This document shows positions 33 through 5,834 of a stretch of DNA of 64,000 nucleotides, piece after piece. The stretch is from Gemmatimonadales bacterium. GTDB lineage: Bacteria; Gemmatimonadota; Gemmatimonadetes; Gemmatimonadales; GWC2-71-9. The notes beneath the pieces are model-generated. The model worked only from the letters and a program-made list of their open reading frames with translations, was not told where the DNA came from and searched no databases. Position 1 is the stretch's first letter. Each line of letters begins with the position of its first letter. The stretch is from NCBI GenBank assembly GCA_037189525.1, contig JBBCJC010000002.1, forward strand, positions 768,001 through 832,000, read 5' to 3'. A program made the translations under genes and the position numbers.

Positions 33-2687
33 ATGGATTTCAACCGCCTTTCGATGGATCTGACCGCCGCGCTCGAGGAGTCGCGGCGTGTGGCTGGTCG
101 TGCGGGTTTGGCGTATATCCAAGCCAAGCATCTGCTGATTGCCTTGCTCGAACCTCAGGGCGCCTTGGGACGAACGGCGGCCAAGCTGCAGCTCGACGCC
201 GCTGCTGCGCTGCGGGCCGTGACGGCCGTGGCCGATGGCAGCGACGCGGTCAAGGCCGACGGTGCGCGGCAACCGGTTGCGGGCCGGAGTCTTCGCGACC
301 TGCTCGACCGGGCAACGGCCCGTGCCGATGCCAAGGGCGTCCGTACGATCGGACCGCTCGAGGTCGTGGCGGTGGCCATCGACTCGGATCAGGGCAATCT
401 GGGGCCGGCGCTTCGTGATGCCGGATGGACGGCGGACAAGCTAACTGCAGCGATGGCGTCTCCCGAGGTGATGCAGCCGGCGGAGGAACGCGCCGGCGAC
501 GACGGCGGCAGCGTGCTTGCCAAATTCACCCGCGACCTGACCGAAGCGGCCAGGCAGGGCAAGCTGATGCCCGTCGTTGGTCGGGACGCGGAAACCCGGA
601 ACGTGATCCAGACTCTGCTGCGCAAGACCAAGAACAACCCCGTTCTGGTCGGCGATCCGGGCACCGGCAAAACTGCGGTCGTCGAGGGGCTGGCGCTCCG
701 GATCGTCGCGGGCGATGTCCCTGAGTCGCTCAAGCAGGCTCGGCTGCTGGCGCTCGACCTGACCGGGTTGGTGGCGGGCGCCAAGTATCGCGGCGAGTTC
801 GAAGAGCGGATCAAGGCCATTGCCGATGAGGTCCGTGAGCTCGACGACGTGATCCTGTTTCTCGACGAGATCCACACCCTAGTCGGGGCCGGCGGGTCGG
901 CAGGTGGGATGGATGCCGCCAACATCCTCAAGCCGGCCCTGGCTCGCGGGGAACTCCGCTGCGTCGGCGCGACGACCTTCGACGAATATCGCGAGTCGAT
1001 CGAGAAGGATGGAGCCCTGGCGCGTCGCTTCGAGCGGATCGTTTGCGACGAACCCGACGACGAGATGACACTGGCCATGCTGCGGGGCGTCAAAGGCCGC
1101 TACGAAACCCATCACGGCGTGGCGATCACGGAGGACGCGCTCCAGGCCACGGTCAAACTGGGCCGACGCCATATCCGCGACCGGTACTTTCCCGACAAGG
1201 CGTTCGATGTGCTGGACGAGGCCGCCGCGCGTCTCCGGATGCAGCGGGAGGCCAAGCCCAATCTCCTGGACGAGAAGGAGCGCGCGCTGGTTCGTCTCCG
1301 GACCAAGCTGGAAGGTATCCGCGCCAGCGGTGAGGGAGACGCCTCCGCCGTCGAGCGCGAGATCGCCGCCGCCGAGCAGGATCTCGCGGCCGTGGCGGCG
1401 CGATGGGACGAGGAGAAGACGGTTGCCGACGGACTGCAGACTACTCGTCAGGCCATTCAGGACAAGCAGCGCGAGCTGGCGGCTGCCGAGGCCCAGGGTG
1501 ATGTCGCCAAGGCGGCGGAACTGCGCTACGGTGCGCTCAAATTCCTGGCGGAACAGGAGACTGATCTGGTTGCGCGCCAGGCGGCCATTCTCGAGCGGGG
1601 CGTGATGGTACCGCAGGACGTCCGCTCCAACGACGTTGCCGATGTCGTCGCCCGCCGCGCCGGGATTCCCATTTCCCGGATGCTCGAAAGCGAGCGGGAT
1701 CGGTTGCTCAAACTGGAAGAACGCCTGGCCGAACGGGTCATCGGTCAGCCGGAACCGGTCGAAGCGTTGGCGGAAGCCGCTCGGCGGATGCGAACGGATC
1801 TGCGCAAGAAGCGGAAACCGGCATCGTTCCTGTTCGTCGGCCCGACCGGGGTGGGCAAGACGGAACTGGCCAAGGGGCTCGCGGCCGCGCTGTTCGACGA
1901 CGAGAGCGCGTTGATTCGGATCGACATGGCCGAATACAAGGACGCCGGGTCGATCTCCGGTCTGATCGGATCACGACCGGGGCTGGTCGGATCGGAGCAG
2001 GGTGGTTTCCTCACCGAGCAGGTACGGCGTTCGCCGTATTCGGTGGTACTGTTCGACGAAATCGAAAAAGCCCACGCCGAGGTAATGGACCTGATGCTGG
2101 GGCTGCTCGATGAGGGCCGCCTGACCGACGCGAAGGGCCGCCTCTGTGATTTTACCAATACGATCGTGCTCCTGACGTCCAACCTCGGTGTCAAAGAGGC
2201 CAACGCGGTCGCCAAGACGGCCGACGAGCGGCGTGAGATCATCATGCAGGTGGTCCAGAGCACGCTCCGACCCGAGATCTTCAATCGCCTGGGCGGCGTG
2301 ATCCCGTTCAACTCGCTCGAACTCGACAGCCTGGAGCGGATCGTCCGGATCCATCTGGCGAGTCTGGCCGACCGGGTTCGGGACGAGTACAAAGCGTCGC
2401 TGGAAGTCGACGCGGACGCCGTAACGCTGCTTGCGCAGCTATCATATGATCCGGCGTATGGCGCCCGACCGGTGGAGCGGACCATCGATCGGCATCTGTT
2501 GAGTCCGCTGTCCCGGCTGATCATCGGTGGCGATGTCACCAAGGGCACGGTGGTCCGCGTCGTCAAAGACGGTGAAGAGGTCGTTCTCCTGGCAGGCACT
2601 CGGGAAGAGGTGGATGCGGAGGCCAAGAATCTGGCCGCCGCTGCGACCGCGCCGGCTGCGGACAGCGGAGAAGCGAAGGAGGCGTGA
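33..2687 (+). CDS. ClpB-like AAA+ ATPase (divergent paralog)
   Basis: N-terminal Clp repeat region. D1 has Walker A GDPGTGKT, Walker B LFLDEIH and pore loop AKYRGEFEER. Coiled-coil M-domain with AAELRYG. D2 has GPTGVGKT, VLFDEIEKAH and YGARP. The D2 pore loop is GLVG instead of GYVG. Confidence 0.9.
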   Translation: MDFNRLSMDLTAALEESRRVAGRAGLAYIQAKHLLIALLEPQGALGRTAAKLQLDAAAALRAVTAVADGSDAVKADGARQPVAGRSLRDLLDRATARADAKGVRTIGPLEVVAVAIDSDQGNLGPALRDAGWTADKLTAAMASPEVMQPAEERAGDDGGSVLAKFTRDLTEAARQGKLMPVVGRDAETRNVIQTLLRKTKNNPVLVGDPGTGKTAVVEGLALRIVAGDVPESLKQARLLALDLTGLVAGAKYRGEFEERIKAIADEVRELDDVILFLDEIHTLVGAGGSAGGMDAANILKPALARGELRCVGATTFDEYRESIEKDGALARRFERIVCDEPDDEMTLAMLRGVKGRYETHHGVAITEDALQATVKLGRRHIRDRYFPDKAFDVLDEAAARLRMQREAKPNLLDEKERALVRLRTKLEGIRASGEGDASAVEREIAAAEQDLAAVAARWDEEKTVADGLQTTRQAIQDKQRELAAAEAQGDVAKAAELRYGALKFLAEQETDLVARQAAILERGVMVPQDVRSNDVADVVARRAGIPISRMLESERDRLLKLEERLAERVIGQPEPVEALAEAARRMRTDLRKKRKPASFLFVGPTGVGKTELAKGLAAALFDDESALIRIDMAEYKDAGSISGLIGSRPGLVGSEQGGFLTEQVRRSPYSVVLFDEIEKAHAEVMDLMLGLLDEGRLTDAKGRLCDFTNTIVLLTSNLGVKEANAVAKTADERREIIMQVVQSTLRPEIFNRLGGVIPFNSLELDSLERIVRIHLASLADRVRDEYKASLEVDADAVTLLAQLSYDPAYGARPVERTIDRHLLSPLSRLIIGGDVTKGTVVRVVKDGEEVVLLAGTREEVDAEAKNLAAAATAPAADSGEAKEA

Positions 2688-3796
2688 TGCGGCGCATGGT
2701 GCTGATGACGGTGCTGGTTGCACTCTGTGCCTCGAATCTCGAGGCGCAGATTCCGCTGCCGTTCTTCAAGAAAAAGAAGAAGCCGCCGGCCGAGGCGGTG
2801 AAGCCACCCGAAGAGTTGCCGGCGCCAGGCACGGCTCCGGCCATTGCGCCCGCGGCTGCACCGGCCACGGCAGGCACCGCAGCAACGCCAGCGCAAGATG
2901 CTGCTGCGCCAGCCATCGTATCATCCGGCGCCGCCGTGCAGTCACAGGAGGAAAAGCAGGCGCTCCAGAATGCGATCCAGCAGGCGCTGGCAGCGGACCA
3001 GGCGGCGGATACCACGGTGGCGCACATTCGCGAGCGGATGGCGCGCTGGACCCAGGTCATGCTGCAGGACCCGACCAATGTCGTGGCACAGAGCGCATTG
3101 CAGCAGGCGCGGGACGATCTTCGCGCAGCCAACGAACGGGCACTGCAAGCCGGTAAAGCGGATCAGGCGACGCGCGATGTGGTCGCCAGCCGACTCAATC
3201 AGGCCGAGATCGACATCCGCGGTAAGAACTGGACGACGGCCGAGCAGCATCTGCGCTTCGTGCTCGATCAGGATAGCGCCAACCCGCGGGCCAGAAGTCT
3301 GATGGCGGAGCTCGAGAAGGGCCGGCGGCTTTCCGACCTGCAGCGCCAGGCGCTGTATATCATCCCGGTGCTGGTCATTCTGGCGGCGGGCCTGGTGCTG
3401 GTCGTCAAGTTGGGCGTCAAGTATCGGGAGTCGCGCCAGCAGAAAGCAGATGCGATTGCCGCGACCCGGGCTGCCGTACTGCAGATCGTCGACGGCGTCG
3501 GCCGGGGTAAGCTGGTGACTCTCGACAAGGACAAGGGCATCTTCAAGATCGGCGCTGCGCAGGGGCCGGCCGATGCCGAGAAGAACGATCTGGTCATCAG
3601 CGACTCGGCCAGCCAGGTATCGCGCTACCATTGCACCCTGGTTCGGAAGGCGGGGCAGTACTACTTGATCGACTCCAGCCTGAACGGCACCGCGGTCAAC
3701 GGCGATCCGCTCAAACGGGGCGATCACTTCCTGCTCGACGACGGCGACGAGATCACCCTGGCCGAGGTGACCCGCCTCAAGTTCCTGCACACCTGA
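2684..3796 (+). CDS. Membrane-anchored FHA-domain protein (signal peptide, helical/TPR-like ectodomain, TM, C-terminal FHA)
   Basis: Signal peptide ending LEA-Q. TM helix YIIPVLVILAAGLVLVV. FHA motifs VSRYH, DSSLNGTAVNG and LDDGDEITLA. GTGA overlap with the Clp gene. Confidence 0.85.
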   Translation: MMRRMVLMTVLVALCASNLEAQIPLPFFKKKKKPPAEAVKPPEELPAPGTAPAIAPAAAPATAGTAATPAQDAAAPAIVSSGAAVQSQEEKQALQNAIQQALAADQAADTTVAHIRERMARWTQVMLQDPTNVVAQSALQQARDDLRAANERALQAGKADQATRDVVASRLNQAEIDIRGKNWTTAEQHLRFVLDQDSANPRARSLMAELEKGRRLSDLQRQALYIIPVLVILAAGLVLVVKLGVKYRESRQQKADAIAATRAAVLQIVDGVGRGKLVTLDKDKGIFKIGAAQGPADAEKNDLVISDSASQVSRYHCTLVRKAGQYYLIDSSLNGTAVNGDPLKRGDHFLLDDGDEITLAEVTRLKFLHT

Positions 3797-3803
3797 GGGG
3801 CCG

Positions 3804-4619
3804 GTGGTGCCAGGCTATCGCCTGATTCAGCGGCTTTCGCGGCCTGGCGCGGCGCCGATCTGGGCTGCAGAGGACTCGGCGGGCAACCAGGTCGCCCTCA
3901 AACACCTCCTGCCGGCCGACCGGCAGCGGCTCGATCTCTTCCATCGTTTCCAGACCGAAGGACGGTTGCAGCGCGAACTCGGCGGGCAGCGACACTTGCT
4001 GCGCTGCTACCGTACCGTGCTCGAACCCGAGCCGGTTCTCGTCCTCGAACTGGCGAGTGGCGGGAGCCTGCGGGAACGTTTGGAAAGCGGGCCGTTAAGC
4101 GTTCAGCGGGCCGCCGACGTGGTCTGCCAGGTAGCCGATGCGCTCGACTGGCTGCATGGCAACGGCGTCTATCATCGCGACGTCAAACCGTCCAACATCC
4201 TGATCATGGCCGACGGCACGGTTCGCCTGGCTGATCTCGGTGTGGCGGCCTGCGGGACTCCGCCGCGCGGCTTGCCCGAAGGATGGATCGAAGAGGAGAT
4301 CGGGACGCTGGGGTACGCCGCGCCGGAGTTGCTCCGTGACCCCGCGCTGGCCACGGCCGCCATCGATGTGTATGCGCTCGGGGTGACCTTGTGCGAGTTG
4401 CTGATCGGAGCGCTGCCGTTGGTCTTTCCCGAGGGTGAATCGGAGGCCGAACTGCGGCAGCGGCTTGCGCAGGGACCGACGCCCGTGCTTCCGCGCGGAC
4501 TGGAGGAGCCGATGCGTACCGTTGTCCGTGGAGCGATTGCGCCGCTGCCCACCGAGCGGCCTGCGACGGCGGCGGCGTTTGCGGCGGCCGTGACCCGAGC
4601 AGCGAACCGGATGGTGTGA
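3804..4619 (+). CDS. Hanks-type Ser/Thr protein kinase, catalytic domain only
   Basis: VALK, HRDVKPSN, DLG, GTLGYAAPE and DVYALG motifs. No TM or sensor domain. Confidence 0.9.
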   Translation: MVPGYRLIQRLSRPGAAPIWAAEDSAGNQVALKHLLPADRQRLDLFHRFQTEGRLQRELGGQRHLLRCYRTVLEPEPVLVLELASGGSLRERLESGPLSVQRAADVVCQVADALDWLHGNGVYHRDVKPSNILIMADGTVRLADLGVAACGTPPRGLPEGWIEEEIGTLGYAAPELLRDPALATAAIDVYALGVTLCELLIGALPLVFPEGESEAELRQRLAQGPTPVLPRGLEEPMRTVVRGAIAPLPTERPATAAAFAAAVTRAANRMV

Positions 4620-4640
4620 TGCGCGGCTGCCGGACCGGCG

Positions 4641-5834
4641 CTAGGGGCCGCCGGCGGTCACGGTCCAGCGATCGCGCCGATCGCGGAAACGGTCGATGTG
4701 CAGATGGAGGCCCGTTCCCGCCCGATCGTTCCAGCCGCGGGCCCGGGCCGCCTGGATCTGCGCCTGCAGGATGGCATCGGTCGAGAAGTCTTTGACCCGG
4801 ATTCCCGAACGGCCGAACGCATCGATCAGAAAACGAACCTGTTCGGTGGAGAGGTCGCGCACGCGAATGTCCAGCGCGCTTCCTTTGCCGTACAGTGAAA
4901 CGTGCTCGGCGTGGTCCTGGCCGGTAATCGTAAACGGACGACTGTGGGCGGCCTGGAACGCGGTCTGGACCCGGTCGACCGCCTGGCGGAACTGATCGGC
5001 GGTCAGGTTCGAACTCAGCGTCTGACTCAGGTCGGCCAGCTTGCCGCCAGCTGCGCGAAGGCCGGCGGGCGGGTTGAGGCGATGAGCCTGGTAGATGTCC
5101 CGGACCGCCTTTGCCACCGTGTTGATGCTGGGCTCGACCCACGGGTTCCGGGCAATCGGGCTCGCGTCCAGCACGGTGATGGCGTCGGCCAACTGGCGAA
5201 GCCCTTCCTCCTGCAGGCCCAGATCGAGCAGTGTCGCTCCCCGTTCCAGACTTCGGGTCGATTCTACCATCAGACTGTCGTAGAGCCGCCCCTCGGCTTC
5301 GGTGAGCGGCGGTGGTCCCTCCGGTCCCCCGGCAGCCGATCGGACCGTGCGGACTAGCAGGGACGCGCCGTAGACACCGGCCGCGACGATCAAACCGATG
5401 GCCAGCCAGGCCCAGATCGGGAACCCGACCCGCGCCGATCCCGCTCGCCGCCTCCGCTTCCACCACCGAGCCCGGCGAGGAGCCTCGGGCGCATAGACCG
5501 GTGCGGGGTCGGGCTCCACCGGCTTGGCGCGCACCGCTCCGGTGACGAACTCGTAGCGCGCTGCAGGGGCAAACTCGATGATATCGGCGTCCGACAGTCG
5601 CGTGGCGGCCGAGATCTGGCGGCCTCCCACGCGTACGGTCGTGGCGCTGGAGAAGGGCGTCAGGTAAAAACCGTCTTCGCGCTCGGTAATCGAGGCGTGC
5701 CGGTCGGCGATGCCCGGCAGGTGGAGCCGGAGCGTGCTCGACGCGGAGGATCCGATCCAGAACGGCGACCGGTCGACGACGGCGGCCTCGCCCCGAGTCG
5801 GGGCAGCCGGGGCAAGGCGAGGAGGCGCAGGCAT
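4641..5834 (-). CDS. Degenerate FHA - TM - helical domain - M15/LAS-like Zn-peptidase domain protein
   Basis: Start trimmed to ATG at 5834 (MPAPPRL). N-terminal FHA-like region (FWIGS, IADRHASI, LSDADIIEF). Basic patch plus TM IWAWLAIGLIVAAGVYGASLLV. C-terminal H..GSALDI and HLHID motifs. Confidence 0.7.
   Translation of the reverse strand: MPAPPRLAPAAPTRGEAAVVDRSPFWIGSSASSTLRLHLPGIADRHASITEREDGFYLTPFSSATTVRVGGRQISAATRLSDADIIEFAPAARYEFVTGAVRAKPVEPDPAPVYAPEAPRRARWWKRRRRAGSARVGFPIWAWLAIGLIVAAGVYGASLLVRTVRSAAGGPEGPPPLTEAEGRLYDSLMVESTRSLERGATLLDLGLQEEGLRQLADAITVLDASPIARNPWVEPSINTVAKAVRDIYQAHRLNPPAGLRAAGGKLADLSQTLSSNLTADQFRQAVDRVQTAFQAAHSRPFTITGQDHAEHVSLYGKGSALDIRVRDLSTEQVRFLIDAFGRSGIRVKDFSTDAILQAQIQAARARGWNDRAGTGLHLHIDRFRDRRDRWTVTAGGP

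Follow-up and report, generated by a model that had tools for sequence, protein, structure and literature searches.

A type VI secretion locus of a Gemmatimonadales bacterium with a T6SS-iii-like tail, a separate Clp ATPase lineage and a candidate third kind of membrane anchor

The 64,000-nucleotide stretch of DNA analyzed here (the window) covers positions 768,001 to 832,000 of the forward strand of contig JBBCJC010000002.1 in the assembly GCA_037189525.1 of a Gemmatimonadales bacterium (genome G000, contig C2; 98.1% complete). At its left end, the genes for a Clp/Hsp100 ATPase, the FHA-domain protein FhaA, a Hanks-type kinase and a second FHA-domain protein, FhaB, were found where a preliminary description had placed them (Table 1). 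The tight coupling reported for the first three genes was also present: the GTG start codon of fhaA shares 4 nt (GTGA) with the clp stop, and a 7-nt gap separates fhaA from the kinase gene. Two AAA modules, two FHA domains and one kinase were recognized by Pfam in the open reading frames of the window, and a scan for promoters and terminators gave results no better than chance. The preliminary description had noted no type VI secretion system (T6SS) genes in the window and had read the four genes as a system of their own. The first statement holds for the window except for the last nine codons of tssK, which end 5 nt before the ATPase start; the remaining T6SS genes lie just outside.

Table 1. 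Positions of the genes discussed; intervals without a prefix refer to the window.
Feature	Position	Strand	Length	Basis or remark
tssK, last 9 codons	1..27	+		Frame runs into the window from L001:18387-20000
Clp/Hsp100 ATPase	33..2687	+	884 aa	Pfam domains, own clade, position after tssK, motifs
FhaA	2684..3796 (GTG 2684) or start ATG 2687	+		Signal-like N-terminus, TPR-like region, one transmembrane helix, FHA
Hanks-type Ser/Thr kinase, sensorless	3804..4619	+	271 aa	Pkinase E 9e-36
FhaB	4641..5834	-	397 aa	FHA, one transmembrane helix, helical region, M15/Hedgehog-like domain
tssK, whole gene	G000:C2:766387-768027	+	546 aa	NCBIfam TssK E 2e-20; fold match
Remaining operon (mTM, vWA-TM, tssB, tssC, 130-aa orf, tssD-like, tssE-like, vgrG, tssF-like, tssG)	G000:C2:756323-766387	+		Same strand as tssK
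Orphan cassette, G224	L211:5380-10133			Without tail genes
Orphan cassette, G300	L212:8833-13961			Without tail genes
Orphan cassette, G356	L213			Without tail genes
Orphan cassette, G038	L218			Without tail genes

When the upstream contig was inspected, 12 kb of genes on a single strand were found to lead into the ATPase gene. In order, they encode a multi-transmembrane protein (mTM; 381 aa, with a ubiquitin-like [Ubl] head, six transmembrane [TM] helices and an FHA-like tail), a TM protein with a vWA domain (vWA-TM), TssB (PF05591, E 1e-5), TssC next to it (PF17541, the Bacteroidota type, E 4e-21), a 130-aa product, the tube protein (sole PDB matches of its profile to Bacteroidales TssD, 7yw0, weak at E 0.005), a TssE-like protein of weak assignment (E 0.1), VgrG (TIGR01646, E 7e-34), a TssF-like protein (E 3e-9 against the TssF of subtype iii, T6SS-iii), TssG (E 5e-12) and TssK. 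The best fold matches of the TssK model were the TssK structures 5y0e, 5m30 and 6giy, and its C-terminal domain was all-beta. Further upstream lay a PAAR gene (E 3e-24, about 7 kb from the operon), DUF4123 genes and effector-like reading frames. These findings show that the four genes close a T6SS operon and are not a stand-alone system, and, since tss genes lie upstream with tssK 5 nt before it, that the ATPase gene is the last tail gene of the T6SS. An extracellular contractile injection system (eCIS/PVC type), which is defined by a single sheath protein and by the lack of TssK and ClpV, was ruled out by the presence of TssB together with TssC, TssK and the Clp ATPase. The T6SS found is not an ordinary one, and the earlier finding therefore survives in a changed form: by gene content the system is a T6SS, by the test for anchor genes given below it is neither T6SS-i nor T6SS-iii, and in its working parts it is most like T6SS-iii.

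An alignment of TssK retrieved 161 related stretches in GTDB genomes, and 78 loci were kept, comprising 48 from Gemmatimonadota, 26 from Acidobacteriota/Methylomirabilota and 4 under other labels that may be misbinned. The counts are descriptive, as kin are not independent; the 49 carrier genomes referred to below represent 49 of the 78 loci, picked for longer contigs, and are mostly metagenome-assembled genomes in which single absences are soft. The conserved synteny was borne out, with the order mTM-vWA-tssB-tssC-tube-tssE-(vgrG)-tssF-tssG-tssK-clp-fhaA common to both phyla apart from rearrangements. Where the contig left room, clp directly followed tssK in 67 of 73 loci and fhaA directly followed clp in 54 of 57. 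The kinase gene directly followed fhaA in only 17 of 49 loci (16 of 30 in Gemmatimonadota, 0 of 16 in the Acidobacteriota group and 1 of 3 others), and fhaB stood close to fhaA in 28 of 30 loci from Gemmatimonadota (convergent in 22 and co-directional in 6) and in 0 of 16 of the Acidobacteriota group. Among 401 evenly sampled genomes of the phylum, full-length TssK of the clade was found in 8 and a fragment in 1, full-length FhaA in 10 and FhaB in 11; the system is thus patchy in the phylum.

The tail proteins were found to be closer to T6SS-iii than to T6SS-i. The only plasmid matches of TssC were six Bacteroidota proteins at 21-24% identity. In hhalign comparisons, the TssC profile aligned with T6SS-iii TssC over 375 columns at 99.5% probability, compared to 0.7% for T6SS-i TssC, where the T6SS-i side consisted of two close sequences only. 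The locus-family profile of TssC matched T6SS-iii references at 4e-26 and no T6SS-i reference, that of TssF gave 3e-9 for T6SS-iii versus 0.36 for T6SS-i, and the TssG and VgrG profiles also matched T6SS-iii references better, whereas the TssK and TssB profiles matched both about equally. The PF17541-type TssC, the TssD-like tube, the TssF/G/K baseplate and the absence of TssJLM are traits in common with T6SS-iii as described in PMC10781749 (here and below, statements credited to PMC articles refer to the accessible parts of their texts). A 2026 review recognizes four T6SS clades with T6SS-iii confined to Bacteroidota (PMC13584744), and a screen of more than 20,000 non-Bacteroidota genomes reportedly found no T6SS-iii (PMC10781749); in contrast, the present loci lie in Gemmatimonadota and Acidobacteriota/Methylomirabilota. 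Plasmid T6SSs from Gemmatimonadota and Acidobacteriota have been typed as i4b or T6SS-i (PMC9113992, PMC13098142). No prior description of this T6SS family was found in the literature searched, which covered few subscription journals, and an earlier mention, for example by Burroughs et al. in 2011, is possible.

The membrane anchors of both subtypes were searched for. No TssJ, TssL or TssM (PF12790, PF09850, PF06761) and no TssA (PF06812) were detected in the genome of the window, while the positive controls were detected; TssN and TssR were likewise not found there and were detected in the control plasmids. Queries with TssO, TssP, TssR and TssN (phmmer) matched nothing in the genome or the loci, TssQ not being searched separately. 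TssN was found in 0 of the 49 carriers, with a positive control, and TssM in 8 of 49, always on other contigs or more than 200 kb from the locus.

The ATPase has the N-AAA1-M-AAA2 layout of housekeeping ClpB, with both Walker A/B pairs intact. Its best NCBIfam scores were to ClpB (904 bits) and TssH (687 bits), each below the cut-off. The genome carries a separate ClpB (on contig C5), to which the locus ATPase is 44% identical, and a separate ClpC (on C3), which rules out that it is the only clpB of the genome; a ClpB-type gene was also present beside the locus ATPase in all 10 genomes searched. In a quick tree of 53 rows, the locus ATPases formed one clade (support 100 by the SH-like approximate likelihood-ratio test, SH-aLRT), apart from ClpB/ClpC, ClpV-i and ClpV-iii. 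A split with support 98-99 divided ClpB/ClpC from the three T6SS-linked groups, and the clade fell on its ClpV side. A smaller tree of 24 of the 53 rows was also made, dropping among others one long and one truncated row. The view that this is a dedicated paralog and not the housekeeping clpB was thus upheld.

So was the statement that the ATPase keeps the ClpB M-domain. Its M region has 130 residues with the motif AAELRYG; the region spans 128-137 residues in 16 of 17 clade rows, compared to 127-135 in ClpB, and the AAE(L/I)RYG motif is missing from the sampled ClpV-i and ClpV-iii. The Tyr of this motif, which we equate with E. coli Y503, is present in 44 of 60 near-full homologs and is His in 8. 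Pore loop 1 is of the ClpB type (KYRG), whereas ClpV-i has GVKG or similar. In pore loop 2 (GLVG), Leu replaces Tyr in 61 of 61 clade sequences reaching the site, while GYVG occurs in 35 of 36 non-clade rows, the remaining row not being matched by the pattern. The ATPase therefore differs from ClpV-i, which in the sampled rows keeps the pore-2 Tyr lost here, and from ClpV-iii in the M-domain and both pore loops. In Francisella T6SS-ii, the sheath is disassembled by ClpB itself (PMC7182274); in contrast, the present loci encode a separate paralog clade with its own pore loop 2. Because of its linkage to the tail genes, the ATPase is likely the sheath-recycling TssH of this T6SS. The N-domain of the clade was found in 47 of 49 carriers (absent from G406 and G409) and was absent from the two genomes that hold only the membrane cassette described below. 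A complex prediction of the ATPase N-domain (residues 1-150) with TssC (1-110) scored 0.13 against a mark of 0.32. A full tail and membrane module without the dedicated ATPase was seen at L056, L060, L076 and L084 and in G406 and G409, and the last two genomes may use ClpB for sheath recycling. As separate observations, the clade ATPase of L083 (G420) has its M-domain deleted, and a second copy of the clade N-domain lies inside a 1305-aa open frame at G445:C85:13237-13668.

The two FHA proteins were confirmed by hydropathy to have opposite predicted topologies, the FHA domain following the TM helix in FhaA and preceding it in FhaB. FhaA has a signal-like N-terminal stretch (read from the sequence), a TPR-like predicted periplasmic region (weak PDB profile matches), one TM helix at 222-240 and a C-terminal cytoplasmic FHA domain (Pfam E 2e-14). 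FhaB has an N-terminal FHA domain (E 9e-9), a TM helix at 143-161, a predicted periplasmic helical region and a C-terminal domain with the signature DHxEHxSLYGxGxAxDxR...GTGLHLHxDRF, invariant in 28 homologs. Its A-x-D and H-x-H are invariant, and two invariant His stand just upstream of a Tyr at the position of the first canonical His. This pattern we liken to the zinc-ligand motif of M15/Hedgehog peptidases, H-x6-D and H-x-H. The peptidase-like ectodomain proposed in the preliminary description is favored by this likeness and by one Atlas lead for the C-terminal cluster (Peptidase_M15_3, score 0.91, on 32% of cluster members), whereas the C-terminal domain alone found nothing significant in PDB, Pfam or PHROGs profile searches; the fold-search matches of FhaB were all to its FHA domain. 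FhaA is a candidate membrane-complex subunit, and FhaB a candidate subunit for the membrane complex or for cell-wall remodeling. Acidobacterial FhaA proteins (e.g., L100:14361-16472) are about 700 aa long, with two periplasmic 3-keto-disaccharide-hydrolase-like (lectin-type) domains in the place of the low-complexity linker of the present FhaA.

The FHA proteins also occurred apart from any tail. Two genomes, G224 (99% complete) and G300 (97%), lack TssK, TssC and the ATPase of the clade and carry a cassette of a TM protein with Sel1-like repeats (TM-Sel1), an mTM without Ubl, a shortened vWA-TM, FhaA and FhaB; the same kind of cassette was found as a second copy in G356 and G038. The gene order was TM-Sel1 / mTM without Ubl / vWA-TM / FhaA / (kinase) / FhaB, and the vWA domain was largely deleted in three of the four. 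The TM-Sel1 proteins at the head of the cassettes are similar to a membrane protein encoded upstream of the present operon (L002:9909-11786, G000:C2:737909-739786), in which repeats resembling a kinase N-lobe are combined with a single TM helix and Sel1-like repeats; a related family occurs in about 10 loci. Because the orphan cassettes hold FhaA, FhaB, mTM and vWA-TM without the ATPase, the FHA proteins are to be grouped with mTM and vWA-TM, whereas the ATPase goes with the tail; because mTM, vWA-TM, fhaA and fhaB recur away from tail genes, they behave as one unit. The earlier pairing of the FHA proteins with the Clp ATPase is contradicted by these findings, as the ATPase follows the sheath and baseplate genes. 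The idea of a trans-envelope module for secretion or conflict is plausible for the membrane proteins.

Taken together, the findings favor, with a probability of about 0.62, a T6SS with a T6SS-iii-like tail in which the ATPase is likely TssH and FhaA and FhaB, with mTM and vWA-TM, likely form a third kind of membrane anchor. Gene content, gene order, the failed search for the tested anchors and the clade and motifs of the ATPase are observed; the mechanism is inferred from them. In the proposed mechanism, mTM, vWA-TM and FhaA, joined in Gemmatimonadota by FhaB, would assemble in the inner membrane, where their cytoplasmic Ubl and FHA-type domains may dock the TssK baseplate as proposed for the Ubl of TssN in T6SS-iii. 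The periplasmic domain of FhaB could bind or locally open peptidoglycan, by functional analogy with the T6SS-i endopeptidase TagX (PMC13584744). Sheath contraction would then drive out the TssD tube with its VgrG/PAAR spike, and the ATPase would take the contracted sheath apart by threading, for which it would rely chiefly on pore loop 1. An optional tuning role may fall to the kinase, perhaps through a conserved Thr in the tail of vWA-TM.

Several points weigh against this reading. FhaB and the short kinase, being absent from the Acidobacteriota-group loci, are not a universal core, and the assignment of FhaB to M15 lacks profile support and has Tyr for the first canonical His. Four loci run from tssK straight into fhaA, and the ATPase clade is absent from G406 and G409. 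In approximately unbiased (AU) tests the sister group of the clade was not fixed (ClpV-iii, p 0.36; ClpV-i, p 0.37; ClpB, p 0.066), and long branches in the tree may attract. No outer-membrane or lipoprotein subunit that could serve the passage of the tube through the outer membrane was evident in the conserved locus, and this is the main gap in the model. Finally, the membrane cassette stands in G224 and G300 without the tail of this clade, unlike the membrane complex of T6SS-iii, which is reported never to be complete without the rest of the T6SS (PMC10781749).

The strongest alternative, which we nevertheless consider unlikely, is that the ATPase is TssH and that FhaA, FhaB and the kinase serve solely in regulation or sensing, comparable to PpkA-Fha1 (TagE-TagH) of T6SS-i, the anchor being mTM and vWA-TM alone or something encoded elsewhere. 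The kinase looks like an intact Hanks kinase (catalytic Lys/HRD/DLG/APE kept) without a sensor domain, as had been described, and FHA domains bind phosphothreonine through a site with G-R, S-x-x-H and N-G. In FhaA the S-R-x-H and N-G elements are invariant, and a Thr of the D-x-T type, conserved in the tail of vWA-TM, is a possible kinase site; the kinase and FhaB are moreover lineage-restricted. FHA proteins and kinases form a known threonine-phosphorylation pathway, and TagH binds ClpV in Pseudomonas; T6SS-i loci likewise encode, besides a Clp ATPase, an FHA protein and a Ser/Thr kinase, a protein that is bound to the membrane and may act on peptidoglycan (PMC13584744). However, the Arg of G-R is absent from FhaA in 50 of 50 sequences (G-A or G-S instead, with G-A in the present FhaA) and from FhaB in 28 of 28, with Ser replaced by Ala in 27 of 28. 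Here, unlike in T6SS-i, the FHA proteins span the membrane and TssJLM and TssA were not found, and unlike PpkA the kinase lacks a TM-sensor part. FhaA is anchored in the membrane and part of it is predicted to be periplasmic, it follows clp in nearly all loci including lineages without the short kinase, and it stays with mTM and vWA-TM in the orphan cassettes. Other kinases lie elsewhere in some acidobacterial loci. The phosphorylation-controlled complex proposed earlier is weakened by the same data: because many loci do without the kinase and the Arg that binds phosphate is missing from both FHA domains, phosphorylation control is probably at most an accessory layer.

The membrane-anchor reading was also weighed against a plain T6SS-iii that occurs outside Bacteroidota and in which TssNQOPR can no longer be recognized owing to divergence or permutation, mTM corresponding to TssN and vWA-TM to TssR. 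The affinities of sheath, tube, TssF, TssG and VgrG speak for it, as does the lack of TssA, which T6SS-iii presumably shares. In TssN, the hub of T6SS-iii, five TM helices are combined with a cytoplasmic Ubl domain by which TssK is recruited, and TssR contains a vWA domain (PMC10781749); both systems thus share a Ubl-bearing multi-TM protein and a vWA protein. However, the comparison of mTM with the TssN profile was null (hhalign probability 0.1%), leaving mTM unsupported as a TssN homolog, and the Ubl domain is N-terminal in mTM and C-terminal in TssN. The anchor queries were blank, the identity of TssC is low, and the ATPase departs from ClpV-iii as described above. This alternative is judged improbable. 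Other differences from T6SS-iii are the FHA-type cytoplasmic domains on three membrane proteins, the separate lineage of the ATPase and the occurrence of the membrane cassette by itself. Since the TssN and TssR themes are repeated in mTM and vWA-TM without detectable homology, the module of four membrane proteins is the likeliest known candidate for an anchor.

A further difference from T6SS-iii was found in Acidobacteriota, where mTM is adjoined by an E1 of the ThiF family, a TM protein weakly matching Prok-RING_2, a Ubl of 86 aa and an E2 matching UQ_con. A model built from three acidobacterial E2 proteins gave strong matches in 19 of 24 non-Gemmatimonadota carriers (three being its own seeds) and in 0 of 26 Gemmatimonadota, including the genome of the window (one weak match). 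From the 19 strongly positive carriers, 15 regions (L146-L160) were fetched, that is, regions chosen for their E2 match; in all 15 the E1-RING-Ubl-E2 set stood beside mTM and the E2 Cys was present. The free Ubl ended in -NG in 14 of 15, the remaining one being fused to E2 (L159). The operon was mostly divergent from mTM, often with a kinase gene following, and no JAB peptidase was seen near it. Residues 1-81 of the present mTM are homologous to the free acidobacterial Ubl (E 5e-34), and some Gemmatimonadota mTM copies lack the Ubl. The fusion here, together with the free tag and its enzymes in Acidobacteriota, suggests that mTM is the likely conjugation target: the E1, RING and E2 proteins would conjugate the free Ubl tag to the anchor in Acidobacteriota, whereas in the present genome the Ubl is fused to the anchor protein. 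A search of the present genome gave two weak ThiF-like matches and no E2 or RING match. Prokaryotic operons of E1, E2, RING (Prok-RING_2) and Ubl genes were reportedly described by Burroughs, Iyer and Aravind in 2011; unlike in these, the Ubl of the present genome is fused to a membrane protein and the enzymes were not found. The acidobacterial set, with its ThiF-family E1, Cys E2, TM-RING and Gly-ended Ubl, resembles such operons and the Bil/Bub systems, and differs from them in being T6SS-linked; its Cys E2 contrasts with the Ser-type E2 of Bub, and its RING protein sets it apart from Bil (PMC11601596).

The Ubl cascade could also be the trigger of a contractile system that is anchored in the inner membrane and fires into its own envelope or periplasm instead of into neighbors, for example in programmed death on stress or infection. 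The missing outer-membrane subunit would fit such a device. TIR-like and SLOG/SLATT-like genes, by labels assigned by eye, adjoin the orphan cassettes of G224 and G300, and the TIR-like genes count in its favor. Bacterial Ubl cascades act in antiphage defence (PMC11601596). On the other hand, PAAR, DUF4123 adaptor, Rhs-like and effector- or lipoprotein-like genes flank the loci as in antagonistic T6SSs, and a dedicated recycling ATPase implies repeated firing; self-directed firing is accordingly given little credence. A complex independent of any T6SS and controlled by phosphorylation, with the Clp ATPase recruited by FHA proteins for envelope remodeling, is very improbable: clp, fhaA and the kinase gene are tightly coupled and the membrane module can exist without tail genes, but the ATPase was found only with tail genes and is missing from the genomes that hold only an orphan cassette, tssK ends 5 nt upstream, and the kinase is optional.

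Several neighboring genes were also recorded. Upstream of the operon, L001:1453-6800 (G000:C2:749453-754800) encodes a protein of 1350 aa, which gave OmpA-like matches and weak ones to M6 metalloproteases, and after it a lipoprotein predicted to form a beta-propeller; the two resemble an effector/immunity pair and are flanked by the PAAR and DUF4123 genes. TssG (L001:17479-18387) has an N-terminal PASTA-like domain (Pfam E 1.7e-4), unusual in a cytoplasmic baseplate protein. The 130-aa orf between tssC and the tube gene (L001:12617-13009) is conserved in Gemmatimonadota loci only and gave no family match.

In its widest form, which we put forward tentatively and at somewhat less than even odds, the interpretation is that Gemmatimonadota and Acidobacteriota possess a T6SS subtype not described before, in which a membrane complex of independent build and a ClpV lineage would each be the third of their kind. 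Its assembly would be switched on by a eukaryote-like E1-E2-RING Ubl cascade in Acidobacteriota and hard-wired by Ubl fusion in the present genome, the orphan cassettes representing the kind of envelope module from which anchors were co-opted. A T6SS-iii-like tail is in any case present in two abundant soil and water phyla besides Bacteroidota, without any of the tested anchor genes. The ATPase offers a natural experiment on Hsp100 threading, as its M-domain and pore loop 1 are ClpB-like and its pore-2 Tyr is lost, which mirrors the pattern of ClpV-i in reverse. From the acidobacterial E1-RING-Ubl-E2 genes beside the anchor gene, together with the fusion found here, a substrate can be named that would allow a bacterial cascade of the RING type to be tested. 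Should the membrane module prove to be the anchor, it would be a third way of docking a phage tail to the bacterial envelope, and the stand-alone cassettes offer a handle on the evolutionary origin of the anchors, which was sought without success in the work reported in PMC10781749.

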